In this document: one piece after another, positions 3,632-63,863 of the stretch
How positions within the stretch are numbered: position 1 is the first letter of the stretch
Layout: every line of letters begins with the position of its first letter
From: a virus
IMG/VR virus record: IMGVR_UViG_3300045988_175656
Strand: one strand, 5' to 3'
DNA length: 64,000 nucleotides
Notes under the pieces: generated by a model
Told to the model about the DNA's origin: nothing
What the model saw: the letters and a program-made list of their open reading frames with translations, nothing else
The model's database searches: none
Position numbers and translations under genes: made by a program

Positions 3632-3639
3632 TATATTTG
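3632..3639 (+). promoter_or_regulatory. Bacteroidota-type -7 promoter box (TAnnTTTG)
   Basis: TATATTTG(CA) lies 26 nt upstream of the kinase ATG. The same GTATATTTGCA word recurs before many genes here. Confidence 0.55.
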
Positions 3640-3665: not shown

Positions 3666-5324
3666 ATGAATAATATTATATTAAAAGATGATAATGGAAA
3701 AACATATAAAGTTTCCACATCAAACGAAATAAATCGTGGTGGCGAGGGGATGATTGTATCATTAAACAATGGCAAAGTTGTTAAACTATATTTTGAAGCT
3801 TCTAGAGCTATTTCTCAAAGAAAAATAGATGAATTATCACCTTTAGATGATAAATTGTTTGTGAAACCAGAAATTGCGGTTTCTGGAGATTATAATGGCT
3901 TTATAATGCCTGAGCTTGATTGTGTTGATTATTTTCCATTATATTCTCTTTATTCATTAAATTTTGCTATGAAGAGAGGATTGCCATCAGATTATCAAAC
4001 CAAAATAGCTGATAAATTAATAGCAGCAGTAAAAAATGCGCATGATAATAACATCATTATTGGTGACTTAAATCCTTTTAATGTTATGGTCAATAATAAT
4101 TTAGATGTTAAGTTTATTGATGTTGATTCTTATGAGACTACATCTTATAAACATAATGATAAATTATTAGAAGAAATAAGAGATTATAAAAATAATGGTT
4201 TTGTCACTAAGAATAGTGATTATTTTGCATTAGCTGTGTGTATTTTCAATTTGTTCACTGGTATTCATCCATATAAAGGCATTCATAATATATATCGTGA
4301 TAATCTAAAAGACCGAGAAGTGAATGATTTATCATTAGTTAATAAAAAAGAATTTGGGAATATAAAAGTTCCCAAATTTTATAAAGCAATTTCTGATACT
4401 AATCTTTTAGGATTGTTTGAAAAACTGTTTAATAATAATGAGCGATTTTTACTGGATTTACATGGGGCAATTATTAAACAAATTAAATTTGACAAAGTAA
4501 TTTGTTCTGATGATTTATTGATTACTACTATATTGTCAGAAAATATTGTATCAGTTACTTCTTCACAAAATTATTTGTGTATAACAACTGATACACGTCA
4601 TTTAATTATGTCAACAGTGTCTAAGGGAGTTGTAATGAACTTAACTATAATTGATAAATCAATCAATATTATATTGACTGATAAATACATATATGGTTTG
4701 AAAGGTAATAAGTTAAAACTCTTTGATATTAAAAAACAAGAATTTATTGATATTACATCATTAGCAATTAATAATGTACATTGTGTAAAACAATATGAGA
4801 ATATATTATTAATAATAACAGCAAATGATACTATGTACAAGGTATATTTGGATGAAACATTTTGTAATTCAGTTAAATATACAGTTGAAAATGTATATCA
4901 TAAATCGTTTATTAAACGTGATGGATTATTTCAACGACTTGGAGCTAATAATATTATATTCTATAATAATGGTAAAACATTAAATTCTTGTATATATCCT
5001 AATAATATTGCAGATATTCAACAAGTAGGGAATGTTGGATTAATCACAAGTGTGCAAAATTCTAAAATTGTTTATGAATTATTTTCAATAAACAAAATGG
5101 GTAAAATGAATACAATTCAAATTCCTGAACAATATAATTTTACAGCAAATGAGAAGTTCATATTGTTATTTAAAGATGATAAATTAAGGTTTATTGATAA
5201 AGAAACCTTAAATGAAGTAATATCATTTAAGATAAATGACGTTGATGATTACCAAATGTTATCAACAAAATCTGGAATTATTGCATATAATTCTAGTAAT
5301 GTTAAATTATTAAATACTAAATAA
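3666..5324 (+). CDS. Ser/Thr protein kinase-like protein with a beta-rich C-terminal domain of about 300 aa
   Basis: Motifs seen: Gly-rich loop RGGEGMIV, VVKLY lysine, catalytic loop IIIGDLNPFNVMV, DFG-equivalent FIDVDSY, and C-lobe SDYFALAVCIFNLFTGIHPY. The C-terminal half has repetitive beta-strand character (propeller-like). Confidence 0.7.
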   Translation: MNNIILKDDNGKTYKVSTSNEINRGGEGMIVSLNNGKVVKLYFEASRAISQRKIDELSPLDDKLFVKPEIAVSGDYNGFIMPELDCVDYFPLYSLYSLNFAMKRGLPSDYQTKIADKLIAAVKNAHDNNIIIGDLNPFNVMVNNNLDVKFIDVDSYETTSYKHNDKLLEEIRDYKNNGFVTKNSDYFALAVCIFNLFTGIHPYKGIHNIYRDNLKDREVNDLSLVNKKEFGNIKVPKFYKAISDTNLLGLFEKLFNNNERFLLDLHGAIIKQIKFDKVICSDDLLITTILSENIVSVTSSQNYLCITTDTRHLIMSTVSKGVVMNLTIIDKSINIILTDKYIYGLKGNKLKLFDIKKQEFIDITSLAINNVHCVKQYENILLIITANDTMYKVYLDETFCNSVKYTVENVYHKSFIKRDGLFQRLGANNIIFYNNGKTLNSCIYPNNIADIQQVGNVGLITSVQNSKIVYELFSINKMGKMNTIQIPEQYNFTANEKFILLFKDDKLRFIDKETLNEVISFKINDVDDYQMLSTKSGIIAYNSSNVKLLNTK

Positions 5325-5363
5325 AAATATATTAAAATTGTGGTAAGTATGGCAAATAAGTCG

Positions 5364-5371
5364 TATATTTG
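5364..5371 (+). promoter_or_regulatory. Bacteroidota-type -7 promoter box
   Basis: TCGTATATTTGCAATG upstream of ssb. Confidence 0.55.
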
Positions 5372-5413
5372 CAATGAAATTAATTTTAAAAATAAATAAA
5401 AACTTTAAGAAAA

Positions 5414-5878
5414 ATGAGAACATTAATTGTAAGTGGATTTTTAGCTAAAGATGCTCAAATTGATACTATTCCCACAAGTGGAAATAAAGTATTGAAACTT
5501 GTATTGGCTTCTAATGAATATGGTGATGAAAAAAATGCAGATGGAACAAACAAAGCTGTATGGGTTAACATTTCTTCATTTAAAGAAGAAGCTATGAGAA
5601 TGGCACAGTATTTGAAAAAAGGTAGTAATATTATTGCCATTGGTGATATGAGAACAAGAATGTATCAAAACAAAGCCCAAGAATGGGTATGTGGTGTTGA
5701 AATATATAATGCTGATATTAAGTTTAACGGAACTGGTACAAAGAAAGAAGATAATGCATCAACAGATGAAACTCCTGTTCCTGCACCCAAAAGTACTGCA
5801 AAACATACTGACATGAATATTGCTGTACAACCTGCACCATCAACACAAAATGATGATACAGATGACCTTCCATTCTAA
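5414..5878 (+). CDS. ssb: single-stranded DNA-binding protein
   Basis: OB-fold pattern (SGFLAKDAQI..VLKLVLASN..WVNISSF..AQYLKKGSNIIAIGDMRTRMY), a low-complexity linker, and the acidic tail DDTDDLPF. Confidence 0.85.
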   Translation: MRTLIVSGFLAKDAQIDTIPTSGNKVLKLVLASNEYGDEKNADGTNKAVWVNISSFKEEAMRMAQYLKKGSNIIAIGDMRTRMYQNKAQEWVCGVEIYNADIKFNGTGTKKEDNASTDETPVPAPKSTAKHTDMNIAVQPAPSTQNDDTDDLPF

Positions 5879-5901
5879 TAAAAAATTAGTTATGTAATAT
5901 A

Positions 5902-5932
5902 AAAAGCTATACAACGTGTATAGCTTTTTTTG
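5902..5932 (+). terminator. rho-independent terminator
   Basis: Stem AAAAGCTATAC/GTATAGCTTTT with a 5-nt loop, followed by a T-run. Confidence 0.7.
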
Positions 5933-5978
5933 TTTATTTATGGTTTTCAATTAAGTATTTATTAATAAACAAAATATT

Positions 5979-11375: not shown

Positions 11376-11383
11376 TATATTTG
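11376..11383 (+). promoter_or_regulatory. Bacteroidota-type -7 promoter box
   Basis: CCATATATTTGCAC lies 33 nt upstream of the pncB ATG. Confidence 0.5.
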
Positions 11384-11416
11384 CACTATAAATTAATAAC
11401 AATAATAAAAAATAAC

Positions 11417-12637
11417 ATGGGACAAATAATTAACAGTATTCTTGACACAGATTTATATTCATTTAGTATTCAGTATCTTTATTTACAAAAATTTCCTCGT
11501 GCAAAAGGAACTTTTAAATTTAAAGATAGAAGTAACACAGTTTATCCAGAAGGGTTTGCTGAAAAAGTAATGTCTGAAGTTAGAAAGATGGATAATCTTC
11601 AGCTTCAAGATGATGAAGCTGAATGGATGGAAAATAAGTTGTATTATTTTCCTAAATGGTATATTACAACCTTTTTAAAAGGTTATCGCTTTAATTCTAA
11701 AGAAGTTAGTTTGCGGCAAGATGAAGAAGGGCATTTACATGGGGAGATAAAAGGATATTTGTGGAGAACCCTTTTTTGGGAAGAACCAATTTTGGCAATT
11801 GTATCAGAACTTTATCATAAAGAAATAGGAGAAGTAGCTGATTTACAAGAAGTGGCTGAAATTACACGAAGAAAATTTGAAAAATTCCAATTACATGGCA
11901 TTACATTTTCTGATTTTGGAACACGTAGACGTTTTTCATTTGCTGTACAAGAAACTGTTGTGAAAGTATTTGATGACTTATCAAAACTATATGCTCGTGG
12001 GACATCTAAAGATAGAATCTGTTTCAAAGGCACATCAAATACATATTTGGCATTTAAATATGATTTGACACCTATTGGCACAATGGCACATCAAATTGTA
12101 TCAGCAATTGGCGCACTGTTTGGTTATAAAGAAGCTAATTATTTAGCAATGGAAAATTGGTTTGATGTTTATAATGCAGACCTTGGAATTTTTCTTTATG
12201 ACACTTATGGATGGGATGCATTTGAAAAGAACTTTGCCAAAAAACATGCACTTCTCTATGATGGATTACGAGTTGATTCAGGTGATAATATTGACCAATT
12301 AGAAAAAATTATTGCCAAATATATATCTCTTGGAATTGACCCATCAACTAAAAGTGTTGTATTTTCAAATGCACTAACAACTGATGATGCAGTCCAAATT
12401 CATTTAAAAGTACGTGGGCGTATTAAAGATAGTTATGGAATTGGTACACATTTCACTTGTGATATTCCAGGTGTTAAACCGTTGAATATTGTCATTAAAT
12501 TAGATGAAGTATCTATTACTGAAAAAACCGAAACTAAAAAAGCAGTAAAACTATCTAATGATTTTGGAAAATATACTGGAGATGCTGATGAAGTACAAAT
12601 AGCATTACTAACTTTAGGTATAAAAAATAAAGAATAA
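11417..12637 (+). CDS. pncB: nicotinate phosphoribosyltransferase
   Basis: Collinear with E. coli PncB as I remember it: ILDTDLYSFS, LQLQDDEAEWM, FSDFGTRRRFSFAVQETVV, GTSN, LTPIGTMAHQ, LRVDSGD, LGIDPSTKSVVFSN, SYGIGTHFTCDIPGVKPLNIVIKL. The start is moved to MGQIINS, downstream of the promoter box. Confidence 0.93.
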   Translation: MGQIINSILDTDLYSFSIQYLYLQKFPRAKGTFKFKDRSNTVYPEGFAEKVMSEVRKMDNLQLQDDEAEWMENKLYYFPKWYITTFLKGYRFNSKEVSLRQDEEGHLHGEIKGYLWRTLFWEEPILAIVSELYHKEIGEVADLQEVAEITRRKFEKFQLHGITFSDFGTRRRFSFAVQETVVKVFDDLSKLYARGTSKDRICFKGTSNTYLAFKYDLTPIGTMAHQIVSAIGALFGYKEANYLAMENWFDVYNADLGIFLYDTYGWDAFEKNFAKKHALLYDGLRVDSGDNIDQLEKIIAKYISLGIDPSTKSVVFSNALTTDDAVQIHLKVRGRIKDSYGIGTHFTCDIPGVKPLNIVIKLDEVSITEKTETKKAVKLSNDFGKYTGDADEVQIALLTLGIKNKE

Positions 12638-19125: not shown

Positions 19126-20502
19126 ATGGATAAAATAATAAAATATTTAGATAAAAGTGAAGAGACTATTAACCAATTAATCAATCTAAAGCATGAATTA
19201 AAAGAAGAAAGTCCTGAAACTCAAAGGTATATTTTTTATGACCACAAACAAAATCAAAGGTTTTGTTTTAATGATAATTCATCGTATTCACCAATAACTA
19301 AAAAATATAGTGAATTGCTTGATGGAAATTCTTTGCGTAAATTTATACATGATGATGATAAAATTTGTGTTTGTACATATAGTTACACACCTATGTTTAA
19401 TAAAGTTATATTTTTTAAAAGTAAATGGGAAGAGGGATTAACATATGATAAAAAAACTAAAAAAGTAAAACTTTGGGGTGCTAGTACACTAGATAAATGC
19501 TCATATTTAATTAAAAATATGTTAATTGAGCTTAAACATGAATGGTTTCTTTCATTACCAGATTTTTTTAAAGAAAATTTGACTAAAACTTTATTAGAAA
19601 ACATATTAAATGGCAAAATTACAAATCCTGAAGATTATATTAAAAAATATATGAAAACTTCTCTTAAATATAGTTTTCATTATAAATTAATTAAAAAATG
19701 GTTTGAAGTTGATGGATTTTATTTCAAAAAAGATGAAAATTTTGTGATACCAAAAGGTAAATCTGTTTATGATAAAACATTCTTATCAGAAAATAAGAAA
19801 AATTTCGTTTTTCTTTCTCAGCATCATGAATTTAATAGAGGGTTAAACATGAAATATATTAAAGATTATACTGTTGAACCTAATTTTTCTATGCAAAAAA
19901 TTTTAAGTGGTGAGCTTTCTCAAAGTTATTTAGAAACACTTAATGATATGTTTAACCAATGTAAATTACTTGGAGAAAAAGTCAATTTACATTGGTCATA
20001 CAATAGATTACAAGAAGAACATTTGAAGTTTACTAGAAAAATAGCATCTATTAGATTTATAAATGCTGATTTAGAAAATGTAAAATATTTTGGAACTACT
20101 ACAAACCCTGAATTGATAAAATATGAAATTGTTAATAATGAAAAAATGGCTTTTGAAGAAGGAAACGAAATGTACAATTGTGTATATACAAATTATTGGT
20201 CAAGAGTTAAAGACAAAGAATATTTTATTTTTAAGGTAACTTATCCAGAACGATGTACAGTAGGTGTTTCTAAAACATATTGGGCTAATGATAGTAAAGA
20301 CAGATTTTTCATTGAACAAGCTTATATTAGACATAATAGACCTGTAAAACCTGAAACAAAATTACTATTAATTGGATGGATAAGTAGTAAAGAGATGCAA
20401 AACTTTTTTGTCATGAATTATAAAACATATGATGAAAAAGATATTAAAACATTAGAAGAAATAGAAATAGAAGAATTAAGCCTAAAGAAAAAAGCTGTTT
20501 AA
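19126..20502 (+). CDS. PcfJ-like protein (tentative)
   Basis: The C-terminal FEEGNEMYNCVYTNYWSRVKDKEYFIFKV resembles the PcfJ-like E(G)..M.HCV..Y....G....F core. Confidence 0.55.
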   Translation: MDKIIKYLDKSEETINQLINLKHELKEESPETQRYIFYDHKQNQRFCFNDNSSYSPITKKYSELLDGNSLRKFIHDDDKICVCTYSYTPMFNKVIFFKSKWEEGLTYDKKTKKVKLWGASTLDKCSYLIKNMLIELKHEWFLSLPDFFKENLTKTLLENILNGKITNPEDYIKKYMKTSLKYSFHYKLIKKWFEVDGFYFKKDENFVIPKGKSVYDKTFLSENKKNFVFLSQHHEFNRGLNMKYIKDYTVEPNFSMQKILSGELSQSYLETLNDMFNQCKLLGEKVNLHWSYNRLQEEHLKFTRKIASIRFINADLENVKYFGTTTNPELIKYEIVNNEKMAFEEGNEMYNCVYTNYWSRVKDKEYFIFKVTYPERCTVGVSKTYWANDSKDRFFIEQAYIRHNRPVKPETKLLLIGWISSKEMQNFFVMNYKTYDEKDIKTLEEIEIEELSLKKKAV

Positions 20503-31580: not shown

Positions 31581-31601
31581 TATTGATACAACTAAACATA
31601 T

Positions 31602-31638
31602 AAAAAAGGTGAGTATAAAGTTTATACTCACCTTTTTT
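31602..31638 (+). terminator. rho-independent terminator
   Basis: AAAAAAGGTGAGTAT-aaagttt-ATACTCACCTTTTTT. Confidence 0.8.
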
Positions 31639-31681
31639 ATATTATTAACAGTTATTATTTTAATAATACCAATTAAAATAT

Positions 31682-31689
31682 TATATTTG
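31682..31689 (+). promoter_or_regulatory. Bacteroidota-type -7 promoter box for the effector gene
   Basis: TTATATTTGCATTG lies 24 nt upstream of the ATG at 31714. Confidence 0.55.
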
Positions 31690-31713
31690 CATTGAAATAA
31701 TAAATAAAACAAT

Positions 31714-33372
31714 ATGGAAAATAGTATTTATGTACTTGAATTACCTTTAAAAGTTGAGAAATGGCAAGAAGATATTATGGTTAAACGCTTTAATTTATTG
31801 CGTATATTATACAATAATATTCTTCATAAATATGAACTTAGATATAACCAATTAATTAAGATTAAAGAATATCGTGAAGCTAAAACTAAGTTATATAATT
31901 TAGATGCAAAAAAAGAAATTAAGGCTAAGATAAAAGCAATAGAAAAAGAACTAGGCAAAAAAAATGCTATCAACAATGAAAACTATAATCTATTAATTAA
32001 TGAGTTAAAAACTATTTCTTGCACATTATCTGAAAATGATAAAAAAACATATAAAGATATTAAATCTAATTTAGAAAAACAATTTGGCTTCACTGAATAT
32101 GGAATTTATGGCAAATGTAATGAAGGTATAGGGTGGAATATAGCTCAATATGCTAAAAATTGTGGTATAAATTCAACAATCATAGAAAGAATGTGCAAAA
32201 AAAACGTATGGAAATCAATTGAAGGTTTTTTATTTAAAGGGAAAAAAATTCATTATAAGAAATATAATGAATTTAATTCATTATATGGAACTAATGTTTC
32301 TAAAGTATTAACAGGAATAAGTTTTGATGGTAAATGTGTATATTGGAGAAAATCAGGTAAAAAAAATAATAAAGGAGTATATTCTGATATTGTTTTACCA
32401 ATCAATAAAACTGTAAACGAATATGAAGCTCAGGCATTGTCCAATGAAATTGCATATGTTGGTATTATTAGAAAAATAATTAGAGGGAAAAATAAATTTT
32501 ATGCTCAAATTACATTAAAAGGCTGTTTGCCAAGTAAAATAGATAAATCAACTAATTTATTTCGTAAACCTGCTATTGGACGAGTTGGGCTTGATATTGG
32601 AACATCAACACTTGCAATAGCTTCTAATTCAAAAGTTGAATTATTAGAACTTGCTGACAAAGCACAACCTAATGAAAACAAAATTAAAATCATACAACGA
32701 AAAATAGATAGGAGTATTCGTAAAAATAACCCTAATAAATTTAATGAAAATGGTACTATTAATATTTCAAATAAAAATAAATGGGTTATTTCTAAAAATT
32801 GTCAGAAATTAAAATTGAAGCTAAAAGAAATGTACAGAAAATTATCAGTAATACGAAAATTGCAACATGAAGAATTAGCTAATCATATAATTTCATTAGG
32901 AAACGAATGTTATATTGAGACTATGAGATGGAAAGGCTTACAAAAAAGGTCACAAAATGATGATATTAATAATAATGGAAAACCAAAAAAGAAAAAACGC
33001 TTTGGAAAAAGTATTAGTAATAGAGCACCATCACAATTAACAACTATTTTATCTAACAAATTGAACAATTATGGTTACAAATTATATCTAATAGATACAA
33101 CAAAATGTAGAGCTAGTCAATATAATCATATAACAAAAGAGTATAATAAAAAATCTTTAAATGAAAGATGGAATATTATGCCAAATGGTGATAAAATTCA
33201 AAGAGATTTATATTCAGCTTTTTTAATCCAAAATATTAATGATACATTGGATGGCTTTAATGAAAAATTATTAAATGATAATTATGATAACTTTAAAGTT
33301 ATGCATAATAAAGAGATTGAAAGATTAAGATTAATACCAAAGAAAAAATTATCGTCAATGGGAATTAAATAA
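31714..33372 (+). CDS. TnpB-like / compact Cas12-like RuvC nuclease (candidate type V CRISPR effector, 552 aa)
   Basis: TnpB-style N-terminus (YVLELPLKVEKWQEDIMVKRFNLLRILYNNIL). The split RuvC motifs are RVGLD(294)IGTSTLAIAS, ECYIE(402)TMRWKGLQ and SQ..(R)..IQRD(498)LYSAFLIQN. A CRISPR array starts 244 nt downstream on the same strand. Confidence 0.75.
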   Translation: MENSIYVLELPLKVEKWQEDIMVKRFNLLRILYNNILHKYELRYNQLIKIKEYREAKTKLYNLDAKKEIKAKIKAIEKELGKKNAINNENYNLLINELKTISCTLSENDKKTYKDIKSNLEKQFGFTEYGIYGKCNEGIGWNIAQYAKNCGINSTIIERMCKKNVWKSIEGFLFKGKKIHYKKYNEFNSLYGTNVSKVLTGISFDGKCVYWRKSGKKNNKGVYSDIVLPINKTVNEYEAQALSNEIAYVGIIRKIIRGKNKFYAQITLKGCLPSKIDKSTNLFRKPAIGRVGLDIGTSTLAIASNSKVELLELADKAQPNENKIKIIQRKIDRSIRKNNPNKFNENGTINISNKNKWVISKNCQKLKLKLKEMYRKLSVIRKLQHEELANHIISLGNECYIETMRWKGLQKRSQNDDINNNGKPKKKKRFGKSISNRAPSQLTTILSNKLNNYGYKLYLIDTTKCRASQYNHITKEYNKKSLNERWNIMPNGDKIQRDLYSAFLIQNINDTLDGFNEKLLNDNYDNFKVMHNKEIERLRLIPKKKLSSMGIK

Positions 33373-33411
33373 TTTTAACTATAATAATTTTGAAATTTAA
33401 AAAATAAGTTG

Positions 33412-33419
33412 TATATTTG
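33412..33419 (+). promoter_or_regulatory. Bacteroidota-type -7 promoter box driving leader/CRISPR array
   Basis: AGTTGTATATTTGCAATG lies 40 nt after the effector stop and about 197 nt before the first repeat. Confidence 0.55.
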
Positions 33420-33425
33420 CAATGT

Positions 33426-33615
33426 AATAAAAAACAAGATTTGTTATCTTGGTCATCGTTAATGAGAACATTGGTTTTCTTGATGACGAATTTATTAAAT
33501 CGAATTAAGATTAGTTTTATTGAACTATGTGTGTCAATTTAGAAAATTTTATATTAGATTTAATATATACGATTATATCATAAATAATTGGTTATTAGCT
33601 ATTTGTTGAAGATGT
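33426..33615 (+). ncRNA. CRISPR leader transcript / candidate tracrRNA-like scaffold
   Basis: Non-coding stretch downstream of the promoter. It holds adjacent stem-loops (CAAGAT/ATCTTG at 33435-33451; GTCATC..GAGAA/TTCTT..GATGAC at 33452-33487). The 11-nt TATATCATAAA (33574-33584) is exactly complementary to repeat positions 4-14. Confidence 0.3.
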
Positions 33616-34241
33616 GCTGTTTATGATATATAAATATATTGTATAAACAGGTTCGGTAATGATAACATCATCATCAAATGTGCTGTTTATGATATATAAA
33701 TATATTGTATAAACAGGAATATGGTATAGCAGGTGTGTTATTTGCCACTGTTTATGATATATAAATATATTGTATAAACAGGAGCAACGATTTTCAACGC
33801 AAAGGGCGCACGGCTGTTTATGATATATAAATATATTGTATAAACAGGATAACGTTCTTTAGTCTTATCTCCATAAGAGCTGTTTATGACATATAAATAT
33901 ATTGTATAAACAGGCAAGTATCGTTTATGGTTCTTGTAGCTATTGCTGTTTATGATATATAAATATATTGTATAAACAGGAAGTCAGTTTGTATGTTGTT
34001 CTTCCTCTCTGCTATTTATGACATATAAATGTATTGTATAAACAGGAGAAAAGGTATCTGGAGCGAAAAAGAATACGTTGTTTATGATATATAAAATATA
34101 TTGTATAAAACAAGCAAGAAATGTAGTGTGATTGATTTTTTTCTGTTGTTTATGATATATAAAATATATTGTATAAACAAGAATAGTGATGAACGCAGCC
34201 ACACTTGCTGTTTATGATATATGAGTTTATTATATAAACAG
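33616..34241 (+). CRISPR. CRISPR array, 10 repeats / 9 spacers
   Basis: Consensus is (G)CTGTTTATGATATATAAATATATTGTATAAACAG(G). Repeat starts are 33617, 33683, 33748, 33814, 33880, 33946, 34012, 34078, 34146 and 34208, giving a period of 65-66 nt. The spacers are unique, and repeats 7-10 are progressively degenerate. Confidence 0.93.
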
Positions 34242-34263
34242 AGAATTAATCAGATATTTATTT

Positions 34264-62747: not shown

Positions 62748-63863
62748 ATGAGTAGAAAAAAGACATTAAATGAATTTATTGATAAGGCAAAAGAGGTACA
62801 TGGTAATAAATATGATTACTCAAAAGTGAATTATATAAACTCACAAGAAAAAGTATGTATTGTTTGCCATGAACATGGTGAATTTTGGCAGCTTCCATTT
62901 AAACATTTAAAAGGTCAAGGATGCCCAAAATGCTTTAGAAATAATCTTAGTGATATATTAAAATTTTCAATAGATGAATTTATCAAAAAAGCAAAAGAAA
63001 AACATGGATATAAATATGATTATTCAAAAGTAGAATATATAAATAATAAGACAAAGGTTTGTATCATATGTCCTGAACATGGAGAATTTTGGCAAACACC
63101 ACATAATCATTTAAAAGGTTATGGGTGTTCTAAATGCAGTGGAAATTATTTACATACATTAAATGAATTTATTGAAAAATCCAAAGAAATACATGGTGAT
63201 AAATATGGCTACTCTAAAGTAGATTATATTAATGCACTAACAAAAGTATGCATTGTTTGCTCTGAACATGGTGACTTTTGGCAAACACCACATAATCATT
63301 TAAAAGGTCAAGGATGTCCAAAATGCTTTTACACTAAAAATAGTGAAGAAAAGAAGCTAACTTTAGAAATTTTTATTGAAAAAGCAAAAGAGATACATGG
63401 TGATAAATATGATTATTCAAAAGTAAATTATAAAGGATTTCATGATAAAGTATGTATTCTTTGTAAAGAACATGGTGAATTTTGGCAAACACCTGCACAT
63501 CATTTAAGTGGACAAGGATGTAGAAAATGCAATGAAAGTAAATTAGAAAGAATAACAAGAATATTTTTAAAAAAACATAATATAATATCTATTCAAGAAA
63601 AGACTTTTGATTGGTTGATAAAAGACAAAAATCTAAAATTGGATTTTTATTTACCTGAATATAATGTAGCAATTGAATGCCAAGGAATACAACATTTTAA
63701 GCCAATTAATTATTTTGGTGGCTTAAAAGGATTTGAATATATTAAAAAATGTGATTTAATAAAAAAACAAAAATGTTATGAAAATGGTATTAAATTATTT
63801 TATGTCAATTATTATGATGACATAGAACAAAATTTATTAGAAATTATAAATAAATTAAAATAA
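62748..63863 (+). CDS. putative homing endonuclease: 4 zinc-ribbon repeats + Vsr/DUF559-like core (paralog 3 of 3)
   Basis: Four repeats of HG.KYDYSKV.YI....KVCI.C.EHG.FWQTP..HL.G.GC.KC, followed by LKLDFYLPEYNVAIECQGIQHF. Confidence 0.7.
   Translation: MSRKKTLNEFIDKAKEVHGNKYDYSKVNYINSQEKVCIVCHEHGEFWQLPFKHLKGQGCPKCFRNNLSDILKFSIDEFIKKAKEKHGYKYDYSKVEYINNKTKVCIICPEHGEFWQTPHNHLKGYGCSKCSGNYLHTLNEFIEKSKEIHGDKYGYSKVDYINALTKVCIVCSEHGDFWQTPHNHLKGQGCPKCFYTKNSEEKKLTLEIFIEKAKEIHGDKYDYSKVNYKGFHDKVCILCKEHGEFWQTPAHHLSGQGCRKCNESKLERITRIFLKKHNIISIQEKTFDWLIKDKNLKLDFYLPEYNVAIECQGIQHFKPINYFGGLKGFEYIKKCDLIKKQKCYENGIKLFYVNYYDDIEQNLLEIINKLK

Follow-up and report, generated by a model that had tools for sequence, protein, structure and literature searches.

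A probable phage-encoded, TnpB-proximal type V CRISPR system in a Bacteroides megaphage

In this work, a 64,000-nucleotide (nt) stretch of viral DNA from the IMG/VR record IMGVR_UViG_3300045988_175656 was analysed around a gene for a 552-amino-acid (aa) TnpB-like RuvC nuclease, which is followed by a leader and a CRISPR array (an array of short palindromic repeats, clustered and regularly interspaced). This stretch, hereafter the window, represents 64 kb of a genome of about 390 kb, and all positions without a locus name refer to it. We consider it likely that the gene, the leader and the array together form a phage-encoded, TnpB-proximal type V CRISPR system with a TranC-like or V-U-like Cas12 effector, carried by a Bacteroides megaphage of about 390 kb. 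An earlier note on this DNA, made from the sequence alone, had proposed a new, compact, virus-encoded type V system. Its interpretation is supported in its essentials, and the caveat concerns the word "new".

The CRISPR array and its link to the effector gene

The effector gene (31714–33372, plus strand) is followed on the same strand by the array (33616–34242), with 243 nt between the stop codon and the first repeat. By direct-repeat analysis, the array comprises 10 repeats of 36–38 nt and nine spacers of 25–30 nt, all of them different, with the 36-nt consensus repeat GCTGTTTATGATATATAAATATATTGTATAAACAGG and a period of 65–68 nt. The earlier note was therefore right about the position and strand of the array and about its 10 repeats and nine unique spacers, whereas its gap of 244 nt and its lengths of 34–36 nt for the repeats and 27–32 nt for the spacers have to be replaced by these values. 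Repeats 8–10 (36–38 nt) are degenerate, so they mark the trailer end. Within the 64 kb the repeat is confined to the array, with seven matches at up to three mismatches against 0.00 expected, and its RNA is predicted to form a hairpin with a 9-bp stem (–9.4 kcal/mol, z –3.6).

The exact window protein was found on at least 24 contigs, several of them 389–397 kb long. Furthermore, the order and orientation of gene, leader and array are kept over 53–86% protein identity and on two phage backbones, and an array is present after the gene in nearly all contigs. The exception is locus L054 of the 86% lineage, in which an IS1595-family transposase gene (5029–5961) occupies the place of the array and no repeats are left. 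The variants within the window lineage are deletions: one contig is without spacers 2–5 and another has the terminal repeat alone. The 86% lineage (P0135, loci L049–L058) carries the related repeat ATTGTTTATGATATACAAATGTATGGTATAAACAGG; among its strains with identical effector, the trailer spacers are common and seven different leader-proximal spacers occur. The 53% lineage (P0004; loci L003, L004, L006, L030 and L032) resides in a different phage backbone and has the repeat GTTGTTAATAACATTAATTTGAAATGTATATACAAG, which, aligned by hand, agrees with that of the window at 23 of its 36 positions. This lineage has two or three arrays per locus, each with its own copy of the leader. In its strains with identical effector, the leader-proximal spacers of array 1 differ and the other arrays contain wholly different sets. 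The repeats thus co-diverge with the effector protein, and the polarised spacer turnover marks an active CRISPR array. The earlier note had named conserved intervening sequences in related genomes and RuvC residues that fail to align as results that would speak against its view. In fact, these sequences vary among related genomes and an alignment of the RuvC residues is obtained, so the array is bona fide, as the note had claimed.

It could be argued that the phage mini-array is used by Cas effectors of the host and that the TnpB-like gene is a mere neighbour, domesticated or decaying. The turnover of spacers without nearby adaptation genes is in favour of this explanation, because some host machinery must then recognise the repeats. 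However, the order of gene, leader and array is conserved over this range of protein divergence and on both backbones, and repeats and protein co-diverge. Moreover, a structured leader with compensatory changes stands at every array, the protein is under purifying selection, and the T-rich 5′ flank of the protospacers fits type V/TnpB polarity, as described below. We thus regard the use of host effectors as distinctly unlikely, and the 552-aa protein is treated in the following as the effector of the array.

Some further observations concern the 53% lineage. Two strains (L004 11884–11913 and L006 5361–5390) have the spacer TCTTGAAGAAGTTCCTGAATTTGAGCTTCT on the leader-proximal side of array 1, and it is also found in array 2 of L030 (reverse strand), there with a different 5′ half of the repeat. 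This sharing reflects either independent acquisition from the same protospacer or recombination between arrays. The repeat of this lineage (36 nt, GTTG...TTTGAAATGTATATACAAG, with 30-nt spacers; e.g., L003 11980–12015) seems to resemble Bacteroidota type VI-B (Cas13b) repeats in length, spacer size and ends, a likeness that would also speak for the use of host effectors. By analogy, it might mimic a host array and so allow the acquisition of spacers in trans. In L003, and likewise in L004, the CRISPR locus lies between two tandem runs of small genes (L003 5374–9901 and 13491–18339), each with about 15–20 same-strand genes that are mostly 74–104 aa long, one being 176 aa, and have no Pfam match. 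Judged by size and tandem arrangement, these runs look like a multigene family.

The effector protein and its transposon relatives

The RuvC triad of the window protein consists of D294 (GLDIGT), E402 (YIETM) and D498 (QRDLYSA). Among 21 aligned homologues, no exception to D294 or E402 occurs and D498 is conserved in 20, which agrees with the split RuvC that the earlier note had read from the same residues. The segment between RuvC-II and RuvC-III contains a single cysteine (C466), and the alignment shows the C4 zinc finger to be missing clade-wide; such a loss is known for some large TnpB branches (PMC10691335). Two insertions set the CRISPR-linked proteins apart from all TnpBs: one of about 60 aa lies in the N-terminal helical (REC-like) region, and a small one lies in the beta-rich (WED) region. 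Growth of the recognition lobe is the usual course of TnpB-to-Cas12 evolution (PMC10691335). The ratio of nonsynonymous to synonymous substitution rates (dN/dS) among the three closest lineages is 0.13–0.21, which indicates purifying selection.

By family profiles, the effector matches Pfam OrfB_IS605 below threshold (E 0.038) and NCBIfam guided_TnpB with an E-value of 2.5e-10, under the curated cutoff, and its PHROGs family is labelled "transposase". No meaningful match to PDB chains was obtained by sequence, either with the single protein (phmmer, E up to 10) or with a profile of 21 sequences (E up to 1). The AlphaFold2 model built from the 21 homologues is confident, with a predicted local distance difference test score (pLDDT) of 83.6. 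Its best PDB matches in Foldseek are ISFba1 TnpB, AsCas12f, Cas12p, CnCas12f, Cas12m2, ISDra2 TnpB, LaTranC and Fanzor2, with E-values of 1e-8 to 1e-11 and identities of 9–16%, and its viral structure matches are all TnpB-like "transposases". The Cas12u4 and Cas12f models of PADLOC match the effector weakly (E 1e-8 to 1e-10; Cas12f 6e-8). Equally good scores are given to true TnpBs of the same clade (e.g., P0005 and P0023), and because bona fide TnpBs score alike, these scores do not indicate membership in either group. The modelled fold is thus that of TnpB/Cas12, as had been proposed for the open reading frame (ORF), and no named subtype stands out. The ORF at 3666–5324, which also encodes 552 aa, was considered as a second copy of the effector and was rejected as an unrelated, kinase-like protein.

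A homologue search in 5.8 billion proteins gave more than 1,300 matches, of which only four clusters are close: P0001 (92% identity), P0002 (86%), P0003 (54%) and P0004 (53%), all of 552–557 aa. The remaining relatives are about 486 aa long, show 39–47% identity over 96–99% of the query and are in some cases named "transposase". In NCBI nr, P0135, a member of the 86% cluster, is represented by UVM93332.1 and DAF43811.1, which are annotated as "RuvC nuclease domain protein" and "Cpf1/RNA Complex". Among the more distant relatives, P0005 and P0006 (43–47%) are located on phage-like contigs and each overlaps a serine resolvase gene (IS607 type), P0023 comes after a Y1 transposase gene (IS605 type), and similar TnpBs are present in Geobacillus and Clostridium phages. 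In a neighbour-joining (NJ) distance tree, the five long proteins form one clade with 100% bootstrap support, and this CRISPR-linked clade is sister to the IS607-type TnpBs at 95%. The protein is therefore TnpB-proximal, and with 552 aa it is smaller than the phage effectors of 700–800 aa with which the earlier note had compared it. The closest true TnpBs (L007 4397–6563, L008, L014 700–2836) are found in phage-like contigs with a dUTPase and many small ORFs. Since they sit in such contigs, the transition from TnpB to CRISPR may have taken place within phages.

With relatives of this kind, it has to be asked whether the locus is nothing more than a TnpB transposon of the IS607/IS605 type that by chance has a cluster of repeats next to its omega-RNA region. 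Its nearest relatives, at 41–47% identity over the full length, are indeed true TnpBs beside a serine resolvase or a Y1 TnpA, and the label of its PHROGs family points in the same direction. On the other hand, neither the Resolvase nor the Y1_Tnp family of TnpA was among the best 25 families per scan of the window, none was called beside the gene in any related locus, and the window carries a single copy of the effector gene. The position of the gene is fixed, with the same OmpA-like gene at its 5′ side and the same genes at its 3′ side in dozens of phage contigs. Furthermore, the spot of TnpB's fixed single omega-RNA guide is taken by a multi-spacer array of variable content, with spacers that match foreign DNA. 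The transposon explanation is contradicted by these results and was rejected as hardly credible, in favour of a CRISPR system derived from a TnpB.

Leader RNA, spacer targets and phage context

A bidirectional terminator-like hairpin upstream (31598–31642), with a 20-pair stem followed by a T run, closes the OmpA-like gene, so the effector gene is a transcription unit of its own; two terminator-like sites occur in the region against 0.4 expected. The motif TATATTTGCA is present at 31682–31691 (plus strand), 23 nt 5′ of the effector start codon, and again at 33412–33421 (plus strand), 40 nt past the effector stop codon. In the window it occurs 18 times (e.g., at 3632, 5364, 15180, 24031, 30425, 38769 and 52052) against about one expected, 16 of these on the plus strand, and the sites checked against the ORF list lie about 30–50 nt 5′ of start codons. 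It looks like the main promoter motif of the phage, and its form is, we presume, that of the Bacteroidota-type –7 element TAnnTTTG. Behind the box at 33412 there is no credible protein-coding gene, just a 41-aa ORF with a TTG start that begins within the box. The second box would thus drive a leader RNA together with the precursor CRISPR RNA (pre-crRNA). Separate promoter boxes for effector and array, as the earlier note had indicated, are therefore present.

The leader (33432–33615, plus strand), about 190 nt between the second promoter and the first repeat, has stems at 33435–33451, 33452–33487 and about 33506–33553. Ten leader modules were aligned, two from the window lineage and eight from the 53% lineage. 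Covariation was found at 14 of 34 leader pairs, and three stems have compensatory changes. When five leader helices and two candidate anti-repeat:repeat helices were tested together, 90.9% of the cells were paired in the structure against 39–47% with the partners slid, and 18 pairs were changed on both sides against 3–5. In four of five measures, none of 500 shuffles reached the observed values. A covariance model of the leader matches these loci only, including a truncated match directly after the P0003 gene; Rfam gave nothing in the window. This selection at the RNA level argues for a functional structured RNA, which is probably a scaffold part of the guide similar to a tracrRNA (a CRISPR RNA of the trans-activating kind). 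Pairing with the repeat is possible for the last 25–50 nt of every leader, the two candidate helices being about 82% paired, and a weak candidate anti-repeat (33565–33587, plus strand) is complementary to repeat positions 2–31.

Five of the nine window spacers were scanned for targets in IMG/VR or GTDB. Spacer 1 (33652–33681, plus strand), the leader-proximal one, matches five IMG/VR viral contigs of 21–30 kb at 30 of 30 positions, with (C)TTAC or TTAT as 5′ flank. Spacer 3 (33783–33812, plus strand) matches Bacteroides hominis CLA-AA-H207 (contig NZ_JBBNHB010000088.1, GTDB scan) at 30/30, with TTTAC as 5′ flank, in an island of 34% GC that also contains WYL_2 and a gene of the phage-integrase family. 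A 553-aa ORF beside this protospacer was considered as a relative of the effector and rejected as unrelated. One of the viral contigs matched by spacer 1 is also matched by a spacer of the 86% lineage (29/30), and two of them by a spacer of the 53% lineage (24/26). Another four spacers from the 53% lineage have sites in a single 38-kb viral contig: three match at 29–30/30, and the fourth matches at 29/30 there and at 30/30 in a second viral contig. In the 38-kb contig, the sites fall within or close to tail-fibre genes, HNH genes and large genes without annotation. Overall, the protospacers are inside structural genes and on both strands, not in promoters. No spacer matches its own phage, spacers 2, 3 and 4 have no exact 24-nt match in IMG/VR, and all nine window spacers are without a match in the related loci. 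In GenBank phages, no match was found to the phage, to the targets or to any spacer.

The four bases 5′ of the protospacers are TTAC and TTAC for the window, TTCT for the 86% lineage, and ATTC, ACTG, ATTT and TTTA for the 53% lineage. Thus, T stands at –3 in six of the seven distinct protospacers, while TTAC occupies 0.4–0.7% of positions in the targets as background and no 3′ motif is apparent beside the seven. In strand and side, the flank conforms to type V/TnpB polarity. The protospacer-adjacent motif (PAM) would accordingly be T-rich and, for the window effector, TTAC. The simplest reading of these matches is that the megaphage and its relatives aim at other phages and at integrated elements of the same Bacteroides hosts. 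The use against competing mobile elements that the earlier note had suggested is therefore supported by spacers matching other viruses and an integrated Bacteroides element.

A related possibility is that the nuclease serves chiefly RNA-guided homing or recombination, in which cuts in a co-infecting relative at sites matched by spacers would lead to the copying of megaphage DNA or to marker exclusion, and not just to the loss of the rival. Break-induced homologous repair that restores the transposon is the established role of TnpB (PMC10705468), and in the tree the effector is one step from such TnpBs. However, the targets differ in GC content from the megaphage (30–34% against 26%), and no similarity between them and the megaphage window was seen in spacer BLAST, so no homology arms for repair are evident. 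We therefore consider homing very unlikely, and a weapon against rival elements is the function that we prefer.

The carrier contigs are 375–397 kb long, with 26% GC and all genes on one strand. The P0135 lineage is indexed in 250 blocks of the collection, with contigs of 375–395 kb, and its samples look like human-gut cohorts when read from the sample labels. The best explanation is that the carrier is a megaphage of human-gut Bacteroides. Neither the effector protein nor the exact repeat was found in IMG/VR. Pfam and PADLOC scans of the window covered 78 ORFs that are 100 aa or longer and another 31 with 50–99 aa. Among the best 25 families per scan, no cas1, cas2 or cas4, no resolvase and no Y1 transposase was found, in line with the absence of adaptation genes from the 64 kb reported in the earlier note. 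Its description of the surrounding genes as phage-like also holds, given the large phage contigs and the phage-typical auxiliary genes. The latter include NAPRTase (11381–12637), Tpt1 RNA 2′-phosphotransferase, Thg1 tRNA-His guanylyltransferase, an RNA ligase, GmrSD_N, SSB, ART-PolyVal, the kinase-like 552-aa protein (3666–5324) and a PcfJ-like protein (19126–20502), and they represent a cluster of auxiliary and counter-defence type. In addition, DUF4379 occurs in three window proteins and DUF723 in two. The gene at 62748–63863, with a DUF4379 treble-clef zinc finger, has an internal tandem duplication (TRF periods of 189 and 393 nt, 77–80% matches).

Proposed mechanism and comparison with known systems

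We hypothesize that the system works from two transcripts. One phage promoter would give the 552-aa RuvC nuclease, and the second, 40 nt beyond its stop codon, would give the structured leader of about 190 nt together with the pre-crRNA. The leader would act as the tracrRNA-like scaffold, and the 3′ half of the repeat with the downstream spacer would form the crRNA part, so that both together would rebuild the single omega-RNA of the TnpB ancestor. The ribonucleoprotein would then read a short 5′ motif rich in T (for the two matched spacers of the window, TTAC) and cut spacer-complementary DNA in competing phages and integrated elements of the shared host. Because these targets are rival elements, the system would be an inter-element weapon and not host immunity. 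New spacers would enter at the leader end, presumably by means of adaptation proteins from the host or from elsewhere in the phage.

Several points weigh against this interpretation. DNA cleavage, RNA processing, the leader's function as a tracrRNA, the PAM and the way in which spacers are acquired are all deduced from sequence. The PAM is based on two distinct protospacers for the window effector and seven over all lineages, and two of the nine window spacers have a known target. The exclusion of adaptation genes covers 64 kb of the approximately 390 kb. The energy of the anti-repeat:repeat duplex does not set it apart from duplexes with shuffled AT-rich leaders (z –0.2 to –1.8), so the anti-repeat is no more than a candidate, and the window repeat is itself palindromic and forms a hairpin. 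From the self-hairpin and the weak duplex, a mechanism that uses crRNA alone, as in Cas12a or CasPhi, is possible. Moreover, the covariance model of the leader found no counterpart in the omega-RNA regions 3′ of the sister TnpBs, and local alignment of the repeats with the 3′ flanks of IS607/IS605 elements was non-significant (p 0.15–0.86). The by-eye impression that the repeat derives from the 3′ end of an omega-RNA was not supported by these alignments and was dropped.

The last of these points concerns catalysis. The homologue that departs at position 498, P0001 (92% identical), has N instead of D (L001 10001–11659, QRNLYSAFL, from a single Logan contig), which is either an error of assembly or a natural variant that is nuclease-dead. 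In a locus that is otherwise intact, this D498N at RuvC-III would suit a protein that is an RNA-guided DNA binder without cutting, a repressor or blocker that can be programmed, similar to Cas12m, Cas12c or TldR, and that would silence the genes or the replication of rivals; miniature TnpB-derived silencers without cleavage are established (PMC10442227, PMC10705468). However, the window protein has an intact D/E/D triad, as have P0003, P0004 and the widespread P0135 lineage, the substitution was seen in that single contig, and the protospacers, which occur on both strands, lie within structural genes and not in promoters. We therefore consider a pure binder unlikely, and DNA cleavage by the effector is assumed in what follows.

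More tentatively, the proteins could represent a Cas12/TranC clade not yet catalogued, which would have its origin in a zinc-finger-less TnpB lineage of the IS607 type in phages, would now be fixed in widespread megaphages of human-gut Bacteroides and would have two unusual traits. The first would be a modular cassette of scaffold and array in one promoter-driven transcript, duplicated up to three times. The second would be the uptake of spacers at the leader end in a phage without Cas1/Cas2, which, if true, implies hijacked host adaptation machinery or a novel route of acquisition. That the clade is genuinely uncatalogued is, taken by itself, rather doubtful. In any case, arrays on elements without Cas1–Cas2 sharpen the question of how spacers are gained. 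The abundance of the system in public human-gut metagenomes, together with its natural targets, makes inter-phage warfare in Bacteroides directly testable. With 552 aa and possibly a short T-rich PAM, the effector falls in the size class wanted for genome-editing delivery, a niche that is already occupied by Cas12f, Cas12n, TranC and Cas12p. Its value therefore lies in its nearness to active TnpBs, in the modular scaffold-plus-array cassettes, in the human-gut targets and in spacer uptake without nearby adaptation genes.

Of the three published sets that are nearest to the system (TranC, V-U and Cas12p), the TranC systems are intermediates between transposons and CRISPR (Jin et al., Cell 2025, doi 10.1016/j.cell.2025.09.004; described in bioRxiv 10.64898/2026.03.27.714800 and 10.1101/2025.09.28.678669). 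TranCs are CRISPR-associated TnpB-like nucleases of about 300–600 aa that are nested in IS605/IS607 TnpB lineages, are without adaptation genes and have short arrays with 32–38-bp repeats; some members are viral, and the TranC guide is regarded as an omega-RNA that has been divided into a tracrRNA and a crRNA. A nested position in the IS607/IS605 TnpB lineage was also found for the present clade in the NJ tree (100% for the clade, 95% for the sister relation). TranC clade 20, by its description, resembles the window protein, with a mean of 513 aa, 36/38-bp repeats and expanded REC/WED regions. On the other hand, LaTranC, the one solved TranC member, has no detectable sequence similarity to the window protein and 11–13% identity in the fold alignment. 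Unlike in TranC, every array here comes with a candidate scaffold copy of its own within one transcription unit, and the window clade is without the zinc finger.

A second comparison is with the 40 candidate subtypes V-U6 to V-U45, which are described by Altae-Tran et al. (PNAS 2023, PMC10691335) as branches of the TnpB tree with a downstream array, usually with no other cas genes and with many recent, independent origins from TnpB. By sequence, the effector is not Cas12p, LaTranC, Cas12f, Cas12j or Cas-lambda, and it may match a numbered TranC clade or V-U group, to which it is likened by description only. The searches by hidden Markov model and by structure and the phylogeny that the earlier note had recommended thus led to a TnpB/Cas12 fold, to no named subtype by sequence and to a sister position to the IS607-type TnpBs. 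Its "undescribed Cas12 lineage" stands in so far as no named subtype is matched by sequence, but the class of adaptation-less, TnpB-proximal and in part phage-borne type V systems of 300–700 aa has since been published. The novelty is therefore tempered by the literature of 2023–2026 on TranC, V-U and Cas12p, in which this class was established.

Cas12p, or "Cas12 hacker" (bioRxiv 10.1101/2025.01.20.633832; PDB 9JFS, 9JG3), is described as an early TnpB-to-Cas12 intermediate. It is likewise phage-encoded, has 500–700 aa and a 37-nt repeat, lacks adaptation genes, and carries its tracrRNA between gene and array, the place that the candidate leader occupies here. However, there is no sequence match between the two proteins (phmmer, profile) and the identity in Foldseek is 12–13%. 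The PAM of Cas12p is GTN, whereas the flanks here, taken from natural protospacers only, are TTAC, TTAC and TTCT, and Cas12p has a thioredoxin-binding insertion. The miniature Cas12f (V-F) and Cas12n (V-U4), which depend on a tracrRNA and use a 5′ PAM, are similar in size and in their TnpB-like fold, but the CxxC...CxxC TNB zinc finger of Cas12f is absent here and the PADLOC score for Cas12f is no better than that of TnpBs. Cas12j/CasPhi and Cas-lambda share with the present system the very large phages, the lack of cas1/cas2, the small arrays and a presumed anti-competitor role. In contrast, they have 700–800 aa and use crRNA only, and the window protein is much nearer to TnpB; neither gave a sequence match, and no structure of theirs is among the 50 fold matches listed.

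Finally, the IS607-type TnpBs (P0005, P0006 and P0018) have 41–47% full-length identity to the effector and the same RuvC motifs, and the zinc finger is likewise lost in them; several are also located in phage-like contigs. They differ in having an adjoining serine resolvase gene and no array. The CRISPR-linked clade is distinguished from them by the REC-like insertion of about 60 aa, the small WED insertion and the lack of TnpA. At this identity to working transposon TnpBs, the visible changes are the larger insertion and an array in the place of the single guide. Thus, given its small distance from TnpBs, the system represents a well-preserved snapshot of the TnpB-to-Cas12 transition.

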